Made by a program: the position numbers and the translations under genes
In this document: in pieces, positions 15,732 through 54,919 of the stretch
Numbering within the stretch: the first letter of the stretch is position 1
How the letters are laid out: every line of letters starts with the position of its first letter
The notes under the pieces: generated by a model
Seen by the model: only the letters and a program-made list of their open reading frames with translations
What the model was told of the DNA's origin: nothing
Database searches by the model: none
IMG/VR virus record: IMGVR_UViG_3300021082_000023
Location: 794-64,793 of that record
DNA: 64,000 nt
Reading direction: 5' to 3' (one strand)
From: a virus
Lineage: Duplodnaviria; Caudoviricetes

Positions 15732-16077
15732 TGCTGAGTTGGGAGAGGTCTTCCGTGTTGACCTGGATGGGCGGCCCGTCTGTAGTTCCGCTGAGTTCGA
15801 TTCGCTGATTGGGCTTGCCTTCAATGCGGTCTCCAATTTCGCGGATGGCGCCGACGTCCTTGGCATCAATACCCACCTCGAACACCAGCACGTGCGCCAG
15901 CTTGTCCGCCACAGTCGGATTGGAGCCGAGTCTCTTTTTTTGTTTCGAATTGAATTTGCGATTCAAGATGCGGCGAATCGCATCCGACAGCGGCTGCTTG
16001 GGACGGCCGGAAGGGTTCCCCGACTGACCCGGCTTCCAGGGCTTTAGATTTTCCAAGTTTTGGCCTCGAGAACTCAT
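15673..16077 (-). CDS. terS: Terminase small subunit (DUF5681-like)
   Basis: WKPGQSGNPSGRPK motif; directly upstream of terL. Confidence 0.8.
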   Translation of the reverse strand: MSSRGQNLENLKPWKPGQSGNPSGRPKQPLSDAIRRILNRKFNSKQKKRLGSNPTVADKLAHVLVFEVGIDAKDVGAIREIGDRIEGKPNQRIELSGTTDGPPIQVNTEDLSQLSNEELLQYRALKAKTARRHT

Positions 16078-16112
16078 GCATGGATATTAAACCTTGGGTG
16101 CAAGCGCGGCAT

Positions 16113-16604
16113 TTATTCGCCATCCCTTTCCGACGATTGTATTGCGCGTATCAAGCTCGGCGCTGTCTTCTGAATCAGCCGGAAGATTGGCCGCTCTTTG
16201 GCAATCAACGCCTGACGCATCTGCGCGCGCTCCAGCTTTTGCGCGTGTCGCACTTTCTGAGATTCCGTAAGCAGCCCAACGTTGGTATTGGTGCCAAGAA
16301 TTACGGCACGTGTTGTCAGGTCTTTTGATTTTCGAAGATACTGTCCCATCACTTCGTGGTTCTGTGACGCGGGGATGATCTCGAATGCCTGCCCGTTGTG
16401 GCCCTGCCCTGAAAGAAAGAAGCCTTCGCGTTCAAGCTCACGACGAATCCTTGAGACGTCCACTCCAAATCGAATTGACTTGATTGGTACCGACAGCTCC
16501 GCCTCGAAGAAATCGGCAGTGAATACGGACCCGTATTCGATTCCAATTTTCCTCATGCTGTCGAGGCAGTTCTTCCAGAGCGGGAGTCGGCGAACTTCAA
16601 TCAT
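16113..16604 (-). CDS. Putative partner protein of the RAMP/array locus (possible winged helix plus helical tail)
   Basis: GGAGG RBS just after the array B hairpin; 163 aa; LPLWK...YG...IRRELEREGFFL...G. Confidence 0.65.
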   Translation of the reverse strand: MIEVRRLPLWKNCLDSMRKIGIEYGSVFTADFFEAELSVPIKSIRFGVDVSRIRRELEREGFFLSGQGHNGQAFEIIPASQNHEVMGQYLRKSKDLTTRAVILGTNTNVGLLTESQKVRHAQKLERAQMRQALIAKERPIFRLIQKTAPSLIRAIQSSERDGE

Positions 16605-16624
16605 ATTGCCTCCAAATTAAAACT

Positions 16625-16750
16625 ATTCGGGGGCCGAAGCCCCCGAATGAGATTGCTGAGCTACGCTGAGCTCGGCAAAGCGCAGCGGCGGGGCTCTGCG
16701 CGGAGCAGCGACGCGCGATGCTATGCGAAGGAGCGCGGCGTGCTGGAAAT
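16625..16750 (-). ncRNA. Periodic RNA array B: (NN-NGC)n, CAGCAATC, UUCG hairpin
   Basis: 5-nt period; 13 of the first 17 triplets are GCN on the + strand (NGC in the RNA); ATTCGGGGGC-TTCG-GCCCCCGAAT at 16625-16648. Confidence 0.8.
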
Positions 16751-16779
16751 CGAACAATAATCTATTAGTCATGGTGCTC

Positions 16780-16898
16780 TCCCGGGAATAATCCCGGGAT
16801 GTGATTGCTGGGCAACACTACGCACTGCTAGGGCCTGCTGGGCACTGAGACGCTGCGCTCCGCTCTGCAGTGCCGCGCATAGTCGTGAACTCGAAACA
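16780..16898 (-). ncRNA. Periodic RNA array A: (NN-WGC)n, CAGCAATC, hairpin
   Basis: 5-nt period; 12 of the first 15 triplets are GCN on the + strand; TCCCGGGA-TTAT-TCCCGGGA at 16780-16799; begins right after the RAMP stop codon. Confidence 0.8.
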
Positions 16899-17462
16899 CT
16901 ACAAAACCTCCGATAGAAATCTTCCAAACTTTGGATGCCAGGCCCCGCAGCCGATTTGCCGTCCAGCGATGTCCTGTACGAGAACGATGTTTTTCCGATC
17001 AATGATTTCATCGTCGTATTCCAACTCAAACTCGCAGCTCCATCCGGTCGGGAACATTGGACGAATGCTCATCACGCCAAGCTTCGTCGGTTTTTTTAAT
17101 TGAAAGGTGCTGGCCACCCAGAGCGCCTCTAGTGTGCGAGGGCCTGAATAATTCAGAGGAACGATCTCGTTTGTTACCAAGACTGCCGCCTCCACGTCCT
17201 TTCCGAGCTTCAGCTTTCTGGCCCCAAACTTAATGCACGCTTCGATATTATCGTTCGGCATGAATGGACCCGACTCCTCATCGAAGTACAGCGAGCCCTC
17301 CCACCGTAATCGATAGAGCAGTTCGTAATCCGTTTCGGTTTTCTTCCGCTTGTTTGTGATCTCTTTGCAGCGCTTCACGTATTCATTCAAGGGATCCATC
17401 ATCAACCCGTTCGACATCAGCAATGGGCGAATGCCCGTCCATTTCATCTTGATCGTTTCCAT
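16899..17462 (-). CDS. RAMP/Cas7-like RNA-binding protein (Vipr-like)
   Basis: AGGAG RBS, 187 aa; WTGIRPLLM (beta1), FMPNDNIEACIKFGA, RPMFPTGWSCEF, C-terminal G-loop AGRQIGCGAWHPKFGRF. Confidence 0.8.
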   Translation of the reverse strand: METIKMKWTGIRPLLMSNGLMMDPLNEYVKRCKEITNKRKKTETDYELLYRLRWEGSLYFDEESGPFMPNDNIEACIKFGARKLKLGKDVEAAVLVTNEIVPLNYSGPRTLEALWVASTFQLKKPTKLGVMSIRPMFPTGWSCEFELEYDDEIIDRKNIVLVQDIAGRQIGCGAWHPKFGRFLSEVL

Positions 17463-20930: not shown

Positions 20931-21618
20931 TTCGATTGAACTTGATTGAGTTCCGCATCCAGGTGCGCCAGGTTGCCTCCCAGTCGAGCCGGGTTTCACC
21001 CTTTCCGCGGAAGTGATCCAGCATCTGCTCGGTCTCGTTTTCGAGGTTCGCCGTCACCCCGTTTTTCGCTGCCCATTCGCGGTGCGTGGAAGTGATCGGA
21101 AAAATGAGAGGAGGTTTCGTTTTTCGCTTTTCGGACTTCGGTTCCCCATTCCCCTTTGGGTTCAATTTGGTTTCAATTGGGGGTTCCATGGGACTCTGTG
21201 TCCCTACTAGTGGTGACACAGTGTCCCTACCGTATGGACGCTGTGTCCCTACCTTCCCGTTTTGGTGGTGACTCTGTGTCCCTACTAGTGGTGACACAGT
21301 GTCCCTAGGAGTGGTGACGCTGTGTCCCTGATTACTTGGCTCAGAATCCTTAGTTGAGTGGTGACGCTGTGTCCCTACTAAAAGCGTGTAAACCGTCGTC
21401 TGAATCCCGCGCGATTTTCGGGCGATCAACTGGAGGGATTCCAGGGCCTGCACACACCTACCGACGCTGCGTCTAGTCATGCCGGTATCCGCCGCTAAAG
21501 ATGTGAGTGAGGGGTAGCATTGATGCTGTTTGTCGGCCCGGTTTGCCAGCACCATCAACACGTGTTTGCACGTATGCGGCGCGGTTTGCCGAATCGCCCA
21601 ATCGATGTCTTTGTTCAA
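20797..21618 (-). CDS. Replication initiator (HTH_36, lambda O-like)
   Basis: VLMVLANRAD...CYPSLTSLAADTGMTRRSVGRCVQAL; internal iterons; WEATWRTWMRN. Confidence 0.85.
   Translation of the reverse strand: MNKDIDWAIRQTAPHTCKHVLMVLANRADKQHQCYPSLTSLAADTGMTRRSVGRCVQALESLQLIARKSRGIQTTVYTLLVGTQRHHSTKDSEPSNQGHSVTTPRDTVSPLVGTQSHHQNGKVGTQRPYGRDTVSPLVGTQSPMEPPIETKLNPKGNGEPKSEKRKTKPPLIFPITSTHREWAAKNGVTANLENETEQMLDHFRGKGETRLDWEATWRTWMRNSIKFNRNGANGNGKHRETDEQKNNRALKAFVDRSLAPEVHPDVSDVREDS
21190..21380. repeat. Replication origin iterons, 7 copies of GACNCWGTGTCCCT
   Basis: Seven copies counted inside the initiator gene; AT-rich TTCAAT(T)TGG pair at about 21161-21180. Confidence 0.8.
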
Positions 21619-23144: not shown

Positions 23145-23375
23145 AGAGCCAGAGTTTTTCGAACCACTTACGCGCCCGTAGCTCAGCTGGATAGAGCGTT
23201 GGTCTCCGAAACGGATGATTTCACGCATTGGATTTCGCCGGAAACCTCTCATAATAAGGAACATTGCTGAATCGGTTCGCCCGCATGCCGGGCTCATGGC
23301 GCCGTTCTTTCTGAGCCGACCTGTCTTGAGGTTTTGAAACCGCGGAATTTTCAGTAGAGCCCGGTAAAGAGCCCG
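23121..23375 (+). repeat. Putative integrase arm-type sites (A/T)AGAGCC(C/A) flanking attP
   Basis: Copies at 23121, 23143, 23355 and 23366, two on each side of the tRNA fragment. Confidence 0.5.
23172..23212 (+). pseudogene. attP core: 5' half of tRNA-Arg(CCG)
   Basis: GCGCCCGTAGCTCAGCTGGATAGAGCGTTGGTCTCCGAAAC has the acceptor 5' strand, D arm and anticodon loop; no T arm or 3' end follows. Confidence 0.85.
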
Positions 23376-50849: not shown

Positions 50850-51641
50850 TTAAGCCACCACGCGTTCGCCGCGCGATTCCTCTGCGAATGTCAGCGGGTT
50901 TAACCGCTTCCGTTTGCCATGAACGACGCGGACTTCACTGACAAGCCGCATCAGATAGCCATCGTTGACGGCCGGATCCGGAATCAAAAAGAAGTACACC
51001 GCGTCCCCATGAAGCGAATCCGTAAAGCCGGTCAACACACGCATTTGGGACTCCGTCATTTCCTCAAACGTAAACGTCAGTTCAATCCATTCGGTAATCC
51101 GGTTGACGGTGCGGCTTCGGACTTCGCTGATGTTGGTGTTGTTCATCACCGCCCGCAATTCTTCCCATTCGTAATTGAAATTGGTGGCCAGTGTAGTGGC
51201 CAGTCCCACCATAATCCGGCCGATGGAAATACTGTGGCTTGTCGTCTGCGGATCGTGGAGGGTGATCTTGATATACCGATCCGTGCGGGTGGAGGCGGTG
51301 CGGAAGAACACATCGAACTGCCGAAAGGTCATGGTGTCGGTGTGGTCCGTGACACCGGAGGTGGTTCCGCTTTTGATGGTGAACGTACTGCCGGCCGGAA
51401 ACGTGTGATTGATCACCATGATTTGATTCCATGGTGTGGTTACCCCGCGATCGATGCTGATGTTGACATCCACCGGCCCCGTGTAGGCGAGAGAAATGTA
51501 CAGTTCTGAAATGTCGTTTGTGGTGGTGTTGTCGAACAAATGATCGGCATCGAGCGGCCCCTTATCGCAGAGAAGCTGTGTGACTGGATCCAAATCCTTA
51601 TACTGATCGTCGGTCTCCGTCAGGAATGTAAAGAAGCTCAT
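50850..51641 (-). CDS. Distal tail-like protein
   Basis: Directly after the tape measure; ISIGRIMVG...NFNYEW. Confidence 0.6.
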   Translation of the reverse strand: MSFFTFLTETDDQYKDLDPVTQLLCDKGPLDADHLFDNTTTNDISELYISLAYTGPVDVNISIDRGVTTPWNQIMVINHTFPAGSTFTIKSGTTSGVTDHTDTMTFRQFDVFFRTASTRTDRYIKITLHDPQTTSHSISIGRIMVGLATTLATNFNYEWEELRAVMNNTNISEVRSRTVNRITEWIELTFTFEEMTESQMRVLTGFTDSLHGDAVYFFLIPDPAVNDGYLMRLVSEVRVVHGKRKRLNPLTFAEESRGERVVA

Positions 51642-54600
51642 ACGGCGGCCCGCCCCTGAATCATCTGGCGGAATTCGCCGTTATATTTCAGTTCACGAGA
51701 AACCGCCGCCGCGATCTTCCGGCCGAAGGTGTCCGGATCGTCCGAGGCCGCGCCGTTGACAGTGACCGCGATAGTGCCGATGGAGAACGAGCCGCCCATC
51801 CTGGCCTGTGCCGCTGTTTGGACGCGTTCACCTTTATGCAACAGCGCCGGGAAATTGTCGTAAGGGACGTAATCCATTCCGCCATTCAACGGCATGGGAC
51901 TCATCGGATTCAAGGTGGCCGTGATTTTCGCCATGTCGGCCAGTAGGCTGTTGCCGAAATCTTCACTGGCCGCGTCATTCATGTCCCCGATGAGGGTGCG
52001 GAGATTGTTCATCCCCTCCATGGCTTCGTAGTAGGTGAGCGTCCCGGAAACAGCCTTCGAGTTGAAGCTGTTGACGACGTTGTTAAAGTTGGCCCACAGG
52101 TCATTGGACCCTGTACCGTTGGCTCCGAATGATCCCGCTGTAAGAATAGGATTGACACCACCGCCTGAAAAACCAAAGGACGTTCCACCGCCTGACGACG
52201 CGGCCGCGGCTTGGACGGTTTGTCCCAAACCGGAAATGGTTTTCTGCATGTCGCTGATCAGGACATTGGCGAACGAATCAATGGTGGTCCGGCCCTGTGT
52301 GGCCACGGTCCGTTCATCGGATCCGCCGAGGGCAAACTTTTCTGCGGCCTGATCGAACGCGGCGACGATATCTTTCAGGTTGCCGATGTAGGAATTCCCT
52401 TCGTCGGCCGTCAACGTTCCCGCGGCCGCCCGGGCGTTGAAGTCCCCGATCAGCTGATTGATGACCCCCGTGTTTTGCTGATTGATGAGCGGCTCCTGCA
52501 GTTCCTTCACGAAGGTGTTGGCTTCCCAGTGAGCCTGAGATTTGATTGCGGCGACCACGCCAGCCACCGCAGCCCCGATGCCCAGTGTCGATGCCCCGGC
52601 CAGTCCGATCCCACCAAACAAGCTGGTACTGCCACCCAGCCCGAGAAGAGACGTGGTCCCCGTGGCACTGCCGACGCCAGTGATGCCGCCGCTCAATCCA
52701 AAGCTTCCGGCCAAACCGCCGATGCCTGTCGTCGTGCCGGTCGCCCCGGCGCCGCCTGTCGCCGCGCCAAATAGCGTCTCGGCCAGCGACTTCCCGAGAT
52801 TGGCCAAGGAGTTTGTAAATGGGCTGATGAAACCGGAAATGAAGGAACTGAGCAACGATGACGCCGTCGTCTGACCAATATTGATCAACGAATCCATGTT
52901 GAATTTGAAATGGACGATCATGTCGGCGAAACTTTCCGCAAGCCGCGTATTCAGGTTTGCGATTGCGGCGACGAAGGCATCCGAGTATCGGTTCTCTTCT
53001 TTGATTCGGTTGTCGGCGGATTTCTTTTGCGCCTTGTCCCAGGATTCATAGAACTCGACGTTCTTATCCAGATCAGTTTCGCGGAGACCGTTGATCTTGT
53101 TGAACAGATCATTAGTAGAGGTTAGGTTTTTCTGGTCTGCCTCTTCCCACGCCAAGTGTGCCTGATAGCGAGCCTGCGCGATGGTCACCCACGCACTGGT
53201 GCCGGTAAACGCCAACTCGCTGTGGGCCACTTGAACTTTCTGAAGTGATTCGATGTAGTCGTCGTTGGCACGTTCGGCTTTGTCGAAACCGTCCAGCCAC
53301 GCGGCCACAAACTTCGCCGCGGCTTCCACCTGCAATTGATAACGATCGGCCAGCACCTGGCGGTACGCCTTCTCAATTGCGATTTGTTTTTCGGTCATCG
53401 CGGCCGAGTCCGCGGAGGCCTTGGTGAATTTGTCGACGGCGGCCGCGAAGTCGATATGGGACGCCGTTCCCGCATATGTGGCTTTGAGTTGATCTCCCAG
53501 ACCCGCAACGTATTTAGAATTCCCGAGCTGTGTCACGTCATAGGAAATGCCCGCCTTGTCCAGTGACGCGCGCATTTTGTCAGTTGCATCGGCGGCCATC
53601 TTATTCGCGGCGATCACACTGTCCTGGCCCGTCAGGTAGGTGCCGATGACGGAGTTGTTCCAATTCAAAACGGAGGCCACCATCTTGTCGAAACTCTTTT
53701 GAAAACCGCCGATTTCAATAATCCAATTGATGAACAGGCCAATCAGGTGGCCCACTTCCGCGGCGACAAGCACCAGCCCGCCGATCAGAATGTTTCCAGC
53801 CGTGAACACGCCGGCAAGGGCGGTCTTGACCAGAGTCAGACCAGCGGAGAACTGGCCAAGGATCCCTGTCGCTGCCGTGGTCTTCACCGATGTGCCGACG
53901 ATGGCATCCCCCATTAACCCCACTTCGGCCGTGGTCGCTACCGATGTGGTTCCCAGTGTCCCGATGGCCAGAATCAGTTTTGGCAGAACCGTAATCAAAC
54001 CGCCGATCGCCAGCAGCACACCCCCACCGCCGATCATCGCGGCTGCGATTTCCAACAGTGTGGTCGCCAGTTTTGGATTCTCGTTGATCCAATCCTTTGT
54101 CGCCACAATCACGTCTGTGATGCCGGAGACCATCTTCAGAAACACGGGATACGCCTGTTCCCCAATCGCGCGCGTCAGCCCGATCACACTTTGATTCATC
54201 GCGAAAAGGGCATCATCAAATTCATCGGCTTTGTCGGAAGCTTCCCCACCAAACACAATCCCCAGCCGCTGGGCTTCGGCCGACAACTTGGCGATACCAT
54301 CCCGCCCTTCATTCAACATGGGAATCAGGGCCAGTCCGCCGCGGCCAAACAGTTCCACGGCGATCGCGGACTTCTGTGCGCCGTCTTCCATGTTTTTGAA
54401 TTTATCGGCGACATCCAACAACACTTCCGACGTGGGCCGCAAATGGCCGTTGGCGTCGGTCACACTGATCCCCAGTTTCTTGAATGTTTCGTTAGCGGAA
54501 TCGCCCTTGGTAGTGACGTCTTCCATGTGGGTGGCCAGCAAGCGAATACCCGTGGTGACATCTCCGATGGAAGCCCCACTCTGGCCCGCGGCGTATCCAA

Positions 54601-54919
54601 ACTCGGACAGGGTTTCTGTACTGATGCCGGTCCTGGCGCTCAAATCGTGCATGGCAGCGCCGATCTTGGATGTGGACTCCGCCATCTCGAACAAGGCACC
54701 CACCACGGCAACCCCAGTGGTGGCGATCGCGGCGCCGGTCACGGCGAACACCGCTCCAACCTGAGACCAACTGACCTGCATCCCTTTGGCGGCTTCAGTC
54801 GATTTCGCGCTTAATTTGTCGGATTCATCGGCAGTCTTCTCAATGGATTTTGAGATGTTGTCAAACGTCGAGATGACGCCGTCTTCACTGATCTTTGTGA
54901 CGAATTGTATGGTCGGCAC
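51638..54919 (-). CDS. Tape measure protein
   Basis: 1093 aa, Ala/Gly-rich helical; LSARTGISTETLS, ELFGRGGLALIPML, MLHKGERV-like C-terminus. Confidence 0.92.
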   Translation of the reverse strand: MPTIQFVTKISEDGVISTFDNISKSIEKTADESDKLSAKSTEAAKGMQVSWSQVGAVFAVTGAAIATTGVAVVGALFEMAESTSKIGAAMHDLSARTGISTETLSEFGYAAGQSGASIGDVTTGIRLLATHMEDVTTKGDSANETFKKLGISVTDANGHLRPTSEVLLDVADKFKNMEDGAQKSAIAVELFGRGGLALIPMLNEGRDGIAKLSAEAQRLGIVFGGEASDKADEFDDALFAMNQSVIGLTRAIGEQAYPVFLKMVSGITDVIVATKDWINENPKLATTLLEIAAAMIGGGGVLLAIGGLITVLPKLILAIGTLGTTSVATTAEVGLMGDAIVGTSVKTTAATGILGQFSAGLTLVKTALAGVFTAGNILIGGLVLVAAEVGHLIGLFINWIIEIGGFQKSFDKMVASVLNWNNSVIGTYLTGQDSVIAANKMAADATDKMRASLDKAGISYDVTQLGNSKYVAGLGDQLKATYAGTASHIDFAAAVDKFTKASADSAAMTEKQIAIEKAYRQVLADRYQLQVEAAAKFVAAWLDGFDKAERANDDYIESLQKVQVAHSELAFTGTSAWVTIAQARYQAHLAWEEADQKNLTSTNDLFNKINGLRETDLDKNVEFYESWDKAQKKSADNRIKEENRYSDAFVAAIANLNTRLAESFADMIVHFKFNMDSLINIGQTTASSLLSSFISGFISPFTNSLANLGKSLAETLFGAATGGAGATGTTTGIGGLAGSFGLSGGITGVGSATGTTSLLGLGGSTSLFGGIGLAGASTLGIGAAVAGVVAAIKSQAHWEANTFVKELQEPLINQQNTGVINQLIGDFNARAAAGTLTADEGNSYIGNLKDIVAAFDQAAEKFALGGSDERTVATQGRTTIDSFANVLISDMQKTISGLGQTVQAAAASSGGGTSFGFSGGGVNPILTAGSFGANGTGSNDLWANFNNVVNSFNSKAVSGTLTYYEAMEGMNNLRTLIGDMNDAASEDFGNSLLADMAKITATLNPMSPMPLNGGMDYVPYDNFPALLHKGERVQTAAQARMGGSFSIGTIAVTVNGAASDDPDTFGRKIAAAVSRELKYNGEFRQMIQGRAAV

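Follow-up and report, generated by a model that had tools for sequence, protein, structure and literature searches.

The locus at 16113-17462, on the minus strand of the 64-kb window (the whole stretch of DNA that was analysed), is almost certainly a VIPR system, which comprises a vipr gene, two guide arrays (vrRNA-A and vrRNA-B) and a vap-like gene. This assignment is made because the encoded Vipr is homologous to the Vipr of phage SUSP1 and shares the Cas7/Csm3 fold. The best explanation of the locus as a whole, namely a VIPR system in which vrRNA-A is aimed at the tape-measure gene of a rival, is considered likely.

VIPR, a CRISPR-like phage silencing system, was first described in 2026, in three bioRxiv preprints (10.64898/2026.04.26.720920; 10.64898/2026.04.26.720927; 10.64898/2026.10.15.759431). 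As far as their accessible text goes, the systems are mostly phage-borne, and the discovery preprint defines them by a small RAMP protein (Vipr), by vrRNAs that consist of 9-16 YNNGG repeats and a constant tail, and by an accessory vap gene. The NN bases of each repeat pair with the target and one target base is skipped per dinucleotide, a rule that was shown experimentally, and the skipped base falls mostly at the codon wobble position (10.64898/2026.04.26.720920; 10.64898/2026.04.26.720927; 10.64898/2026.10.15.759431). Therefore, conserved protein motifs can be read despite synonymous change. The preprints also state that a target can be on either DNA strand and can be non-coding, and describe decoy sites in connection with satellite vrRNAs. 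Since gapped guides, wobble skipping and inter-phage warfare are already in print there, the present finding confirms and extends rather than discovers.

Organization of the locus

The minus strand is the sense strand for all genes flanking the arrays, and the neighbours of the locus are phage structural and packaging genes. The vipr gene (16899..17462, minus strand) encodes 187 amino acids starting with METIKMKW, and its RAMP/Cas7-like product would, by homology, be the coat of the guide RNA. The start was set at Met25 of a longer, 211-aa open reading frame because the homologues begin at residue 25; the 211-aa frame, upstream of the arrays, belongs to phrog_4652, to which no function is assigned. 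The vipr stop codon is followed by a short spacer (16880..16898), by the 15 NGC+NN pentamers of vrRNA-A (16805..16879) with their 3' tail (16772..16804), and by the 18 pentamers of vrRNA-B, which keep a single register (16653..16742), with their own tail (16616..16652), all on the minus strand. Both arrays lie between the 187-aa gene and the gene of a 163-aa partner (16113..16604, minus strand), which has no family and which, judged by its synteny with vipr homologues and pentamer arrays, is a probable vap (VIPR accessory protein) gene. TerL and the portal gene lie beyond it. Over the whole window no Rfam family was matched at gathering thresholds, no tRNA genes were found, and there were no CRISPR-like repeats and neither a CRISPR array nor further cas genes.

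Some features of the surroundings may be mentioned separately. An 85-aa open reading frame without a family (p85, 15866-16123, minus strand) lies between the partner gene and TerL, and it was excluded from the system because it is not homologous to the 71-aa frames that related cassettes have after the partner gene. Upstream of TerL in the window, no recognisable small terminase was present. At 21190-21329, near the integrase region, two adjoining sets of about three tandem 22-23-nt repeats with the palindromic core GACACTGTGTC look like iterons or operators. A tRNA-Arg attachment site lies at about 23172-23212.

Vipr and its family

The 187-aa protein aligned with the phiSUSP1 record in tblastn over residues 2-186, at 40% identity and an E value of 1.3e-37, and a profile of 64 family members matched PDB chain 36pp_D, the 'SUSP1 Vipr protein', with E 1.1e-62. 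The phmmer search with the window's Vipr as a single-sequence query recovered 2191 cluster representatives at E <= 0.001. The AF2 model of the 187-aa protein (pLDDT 97.4) found its best structural matches, determined with Foldseek and VIA, among Csm3, Cmr4 and Cas7 chains (Z 10-11.5), on which about 150 of the 187 residues were superposed with an rmsd of about 3 A. According to this model the window's Vipr has the RAMP fold, with an RRM core, a glycine-rich loop and a thumb, and has no second RRM. The C-terminal G-loop motif, G-x-G-x-W-x-P-K-F-G-R-F, is present in its sequence.

Homologues of vipr occur in 130 phage records. In Felixounavirus genomes (Escherichia phage HY02, L001, 4052-5082; phiSUSP1, L027) the vipr homologue and the next gene, of 146 aa, are labelled only as hypothetical, and the two adjoin a DNA ligase gene. 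Searches for the locus in IMG/VR with the single proteins p163 and p211 found nothing.

Guide arrays and their tails

Read on the minus strand from 16879 down to 16805, the units of vrRNA-A are UGC-GC, GGC-AC, UGC-AG, AGC-GG, AGC-GC, AGC-GU, CUC-AG, UGC-CC, AGC-AG, GCC-CU, AGC-AG, UGC-GU, AGU-GU, UGC-CC and AGC-AA, so that on the plus strand the tract is a dinucleotide followed by a near-constant triplet, 15 times over. The triplet has G at position 2 in 13 of the 15 units, C at position 3 in 14 and both in 12 (the degenerate units are CUC, GCC and AGU), while the NN part is varied; the NN set of vrRNA-B is unlike that of vrRNA-A, and the sets also differ between phages. When the two arrays were pooled (30 units), G occupied the second position in 26/30 and C the third in 29/30, and the first letter was A in 12, U in 8, C in 7 and G in 3, so the conserved first G of the canonical GGY triplet is not found in these arrays. 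GC at a 5-nt period reached 12-13 of 18 consecutive positions at the two arrays and nowhere else in the 64-kb window, compared with a maximum of 10/18, and mostly 7-8, in 30 first-order shuffles, and with a maximum of 10/18 in the window for periods of 3, 4, 6 and 7. The NGC repeat marks the locus as a variant and does not count against membership of the VIPR class, because it corresponds to the YNNNG-type repeats that the discovery preprint names as a natural variant.

An earlier note on this DNA had described an array of 19 units at 16805-16896. The plus-strand dinucleotides that it listed are present in the sequence, and the 15 units at 16805-16879 fit the repeat, but the remaining four (TA GT CT AA, 16880-16896) do not: the minus-strand triplets there are GAC, UUC, UCG and GUG, which misfit the NGC repeat, and the stretch is therefore read as a short spacer between the end of vipr and the array, outside the guide. 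The doubt that the note had raised about the terminal TT is shared here. The corresponding unit, AGC-AA, is identical in both arrays and runs directly into the shared tail, and therefore may be scaffold rather than guide, so that vrRNA-A is counted here as 14-15 NN units.

On the minus strand, each tract leads into CAGCAAUC(A/U)CAU, a shared motif that can be written AAUC(A/U)CAU, and then into a GC-rich hairpin. In vrRNA-A, UCACAU precedes the hairpin CCCGGG-AUUAUU-CCCGGG (16780-16799); in vrRNA-B, UCUCAU is followed by a 10-bp GC-rich hairpin at 16625-16648 and a U-rich tract, a terminator-like arrangement directly ahead of the ribosome-binding site of the next gene. The vrRNA-A and vrRNA-B units have 36 nt in common at 72% identity. 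Among five tails from two phages, six of the nine predicted pairs of the hairpin carry compensatory changes, and the hairpin is thus conserved in structure, not in sequence. An exact search for the shared array handle in IMG/VR gave five chance matches without arrays, and a DNA search of the intergenic region against phage records gave none.

Residues 17 and 177 of Vipr and the first scaffold letter

According to the VIPR preprints, residues H17 and D177 of SUSP1 Vipr read the first G of GGY, and silencing was abolished by the substitution D177A. The window's Vipr differs from SUSP1 at both positions (H17S and D177A) and also at position 179 (R179H), which are residues 17, 174 and 176 in its own numbering, whereas D is present at position 177 in 50 of the 63 other aligned family representatives, and those without it mostly also lack H17. 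Since the window's Vipr naturally has the Ala that put an end to silencing when introduced into SUSP1 Vipr, its own activity is not assured. Taken together with the first G in just 3/30 units and with the degenerate units CUC, GCC and AGU, these substitutions could be explained by a decaying or inactive VIPR locus, in which the first G and its two contact residues have been lost, the RNA is no longer loaded and the arrays are drifting. Such an explanation is improbable. Triplet positions 2 and 3 have been kept in 26/30 and 29/30 units, the tails and hairpins are intact, and so are the reading frames of vipr and its partner, with a confident model of Vipr; YNNNG-type repeats, moreover, count as a natural variant in the accessible text of the discovery preprint.

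A further contrast with decay comes from other phages, in which Viprs whose residue 177 is A (L070) or V (L071) adjoin long, clean arrays whose units start with U or A. Eight loci were compared (the window, L014, L015, L017, L070, L071, L072 and L027), without phylogenetic correction. Where residues 17/177 are H/D, as in L015, L017 and SUSP1, the first pentamer letter is G in about 75-95% of units; with S/D (L014) and Q/T (L072) it is G in about 58% and in 58%, respectively. With H/A (L070) the units are mostly UGC-NN, the first letter being U in 59% and G in none, and with S/V (L071) they are AGC-NN, with A in 72%. The window phage, with S/A, has G in 3/30 (A 12, U 8, C 7). This co-variation between residues 17/177 and the first letter suggests a changed scaffold specificity, not decay. 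A bolder proposal, to which slightly less than even confidence is given, is that VIPR scaffold letters are tunable, so that natural Viprs would form mutually orthogonal scaffold classes and vrRNA-A would be a broad-spectrum weapon directed at the best-conserved segment of rival tape-measure genes. If the co-variation is real, co-resident phages might be unable to borrow or hijack each other's guides, because their scaffold classes would be orthogonal.

Partner gene and conservation of the cassette

The 163-aa partner protein has 42 homologues. In the metagenomic phage contigs examined, a 192-aa vipr homologue always precedes the partner gene, with a gap of 350-590 nt between the two. Pentamer arrays fill this gap: it contains 3-4 units in tandem, each made of 9-18 GGC-NN repeats with ACACACUGC and a hairpin behind them. 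The wider context of the cassette varies between a replication module (AAA_24, PDDEXK and DnaB genes) and a position after a lysozyme gene. Because the contexts differ between contigs, the vipr-like gene, the arrays and the 163-aa gene together make up a mobile cassette that is independent of the terminase. In the model of the partner (pLDDT 86), the N-terminal part resembles a winged helix and long helices make up the C-terminal part; its fold matches are weak and include winged-helix proteins at E ~0.1. The sequence of the partner shows no detectable similarity to Vap1 of SUSP1. The partner is probably vap. As a separate observation, two very long in-phase pentamer runs of 35 and 29 units, without an obvious internal tail, are present in L014 (3577-3750 and 3815-3958); these may be staggered or overlapping vrRNA arrays of the kind described in the discovery preprint.

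The TerL relatives of the window phage have no such cassette. The closest of them, an IMG/VR contig (L009, 1-4300), encodes a 70%-identical TerL and homologues of the 184-aa and 155-aa genes, and has other genes at the place of the VIPR cassette. This suggests that the cassette of the window was inserted ahead of the packaging module or replaced other genes there. This arrangement also bears on the question of whether the arrays are guides at all. TRAP binds triplets at 5-nt spacing. With the terminase-portal module a short way downstream of the arrays, and with a terminator-like hairpin and then a ribosome-binding site at the end of array B, the locus might be taken for a pac/cos packaging site wrapped by a small terminase, or for an RNA leader on which a TRAP-like ring protein controls the terminator ahead of the packaging genes. 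However, in other phages the cassette adjoins replication or lysozyme genes and not the terminase, the phage whose TerL is 70% identical does without it, and the homology to a solved Vipr accounts directly for the arrays. The packaging-site or leader explanation was dropped on the grounds of this genomic distance from terminase genes and of the Vipr homology, and it is regarded as hardly credible.

The target of vrRNA-A

The plus-strand dinucleotides opposite vrRNA-A can correctly be decoded as codon positions 1-2, because the target unit is N1N2x3 on the strand complementary to the guide. Read in this way, vrRNA-A gives (F/L)GTTL(S/R)LGLTAPLVA. The earlier note had obtained this peptide by skipping every third target base; its arithmetic is right, and the skipping agrees with the published and experimentally shown VIPR rule. 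Many siphovirus tape-measure proteins have this hydrophobic peptide as a conserved motif near the N-terminus, and therefore the 5' part of a rival's tape-measure gene would be the most likely natural target. A tape-measure gene as the natural target of vrRNA-A is held to be fairly probable. In the three VIPR preprints, as far as their accessible text goes and supplementary tables aside, tape-measure genes were not found as a named vrRNA target, although SUSP1 satellites are said there to carry a tape-measure gene.

The nine right-hand units (CT GG CT AC GC CC CT GT GC, corresponding to LGLTAPLVA) were searched exactly with a skip length of 1. In IMG/VR they gave six exact matches, and four of these lie in frame at residues 52-85 of tape-measure proteins of 735-1156 aa with TMP_2 or PhageMin_Tail domains, compared with two matches, from one unrelated lineage and in a 48-codon frame, for the reversed unit order. 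In a collection with one genome per species (596 Gb) there were 34 matches, four in prophage tape measures and 30 in unrelated proteins, where they mostly fall in hydrophobic segments; enzymes, transporters and signal peptides are among them. As a hydrophobic segment LGLTAPLVA is generic, which counts against a tape-measure target. It is conceivable that vrRNA-A is a genuine VIPR guide whose likeness to tape measures is coincidental. Its real target would then be another sequence, coding or not, of a rival element or of the host genome, comparable to the decoy sites of satellite vrRNAs, and would spell a hydrophobic peptide by chance. Such a coincidence would fit the 30/34 exact matches in cellular genomes that fall in unrelated proteins, the want of a full-length target in the collections searched, and published targets that, in the accessible text of the preprints, occupy either strand and need not be coding.

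Several results speak against this coincidence, which is considered unlikely, though less so than a decaying locus. Four of the six matches in viral contigs are tape-measure N-termini. The six guide units that had been left out of the search (12 bases) agree with the guide in a mean of 6.2 bases in five independent tape-measure lineages and of 2.7 in the 31 other matches (Mann-Whitney p 0.0003), with G at -5, L/M at -2 and S/T at -1, and the four prophage tape-measure matches rank at or near the top on these units. In translation, the tape measures have G-[STRG]-[TSRA]-[LM]-[ST]-LGLTAPLVA, compared with G-T-T-L-[S/R]-LGLTAPLVA decoded from the guide, and more distant homologues of one of the matches retain the motif as GRALTMGLTLPLVG. 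A search of a region with a tape-measure N-terminus returned four proteins. The tape-measure-like character that the earlier note had assigned to the peptide is thus borne out by five independent lineages, whose tape-measure N-termini contain exact nine-unit matches in the reading frame.

The match over the full length of the guide is less complete. The best full-length matches share 26/30 guide bases (L023; L054/L044) and 24/30 (L019/L030), which is at or above the cut-off of 80% given in the accessible text of the discovery preprint, but these figures of 80-87% are inflated because the matches had been pre-selected for 18 exact bases, and a random match of this kind would reach about 70%. 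The mismatches are bunched in three to four adjoining units. The regular-expression search that the earlier note had proposed was thus productive in part, with six nine-unit matches in IMG/VR against one lineage for the reversed order, but no exact match to 11 units was found in the metagenome or genome collections. The nine left-hand units had no exact match in IMG/VR; in metagenomes they had five, none of which is a tape measure or extends to the right (best 7/12 bases). For the note's proposal of a rival phage's tape-measure gene as the target, the tape-measure matches of 80-87% are regarded as weak, and no near-perfect match to the guide was found in these searches.

Self-targeting is absent. 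The full 15-unit pattern with up to three mismatches does not occur in the window, the best vrRNA-A match in the phage's own genome reaches 20/30 bases and none reaches 80%; skip lengths other than 1 were also compared against this genome. The phage's own tape-measure gene (51638-54919, minus strand, PhageMin_Tail) encodes VGAVFAVTGAAIATTG at residues 54-69, aligned with the motif position of other tape measures. This is the sequence given by the earlier note, which had rightly excluded the gene as the target, since it matches vrRNA-A in at most 12/30 guide bases.

The other guides did not reveal a similar code. Among 24 further guide tracts decoded from related loci, no second tape-measure-like guide was found. 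On its target strand vrRNA-B reads [FL][DE]T[DE]R[KN][HQ]AAA[DE]AA[IM][IM][KN]AA, and nine of its units had one exact match in IMG/VR, in a DNA methyltransferase gene, which at 22/36 overall is at chance level and gives no credible target. Altogether, the interpretation offered by the earlier note was right in kind, and its specific tape-measure target is plausible.

Proposed mode of action

By homology with the SUSP1 system, expression of the two arrays would yield vrRNAs along which one Vipr protomer is placed per pentamer. In the resulting ribonucleoprotein, Vipr would sequester the constant triplet, which here is NGC and not GGY, and display the NN dinucleotides. These bases would pair with N1N2 of the target triplets, with the third base flipped out, and the gapped R-loop or triplex formed on the target DNA may then silence transcription. 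The target would be the 5' part of the tape-measure gene in a competing phage or satellite of the same host, and as the guide would read the coding strand, synonymous changes should give no escape.

The present analysis adds an environmental, integrase-bearing siphophage to the known VIPR systems and provides a concrete target prediction for vrRNA-A, the conserved N-terminal motif of tape-measure genes. The locus is also a natural experiment on the code, with a Vipr carrying D177A beside guides that are missing the base which D177 reads. It therefore bears on the specificity of Vipr-vrRNA pairing and on whether orthogonal VIPR scaffolds exist as tools.

Comparison with known systems

Among the known systems, the leader of the Bacillus trp genes bound by TRAP resembles the locus in having triplets every 5 nt upstream of a terminator. 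It differs in that the window has no TRAP-like protein, and in that the information in the window lies in the variable part and not in the constant triplet. The Cas7-family backbones of class 1 CRISPR effectors (Csm3, Cmr4 and the Cas7-11 domains) share with the window's Vipr the predicted RRM-based RAMP fold with its glycine-rich loop and thumb, and would also share the placement of a protomer per repeat. However, a CRISPR array, further cas genes and spacer acquisition are all missing from the window's locus, and the periodicity is 6 nt in both guide and target in class 1 CRISPR, as compared with 5 nt of guide and 3 nt of target in VIPR, where the guide information is non-contiguous.

The closest relative is the Type II VIPR of Escherichia phage SUSP1 and of a Pseudomonas fulva prophage, which consists of Vipr, vrRNA and Vap1 according to the accessible text of the preprints (10.64898/2026.04.26.720920; 10.64898/2026.04.26.720927; 10.64898/2026.10.15.759431). 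The SUSP1 locus was inspected directly, and its vipr gene adjoins GGU-NN arrays. The window differs from SUSP1 in its triplet, which is NGC with G first in 3/30 instead of GGY, and in the residues S, A and H of its Vipr in place of H17, D177 and R179. Both guides of the window lie between vipr and the partner gene, whereas in SUSP1 a single guide precedes vipr and three follow vap1; the tail in the window is a simple predicted hairpin after AAUC(A/U)CAU; the partner, of 163 aa, is not detectably similar to Vap1; and the targets predicted for the window are tape-measure genes. The two systems nevertheless agree in a phage-borne locus with a Vipr of about 190 aa (40% identity) and a small partner gene alongside, and in guides of 9-16 or more pentamers, each with a constant triplet and a variable dinucleotide, that end in a constant structured 3' tail. 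They also agree in a decoded guide that would match the conserved first two positions of codons in a rival element's gene and that spares the phage's own genome at the 80% level.
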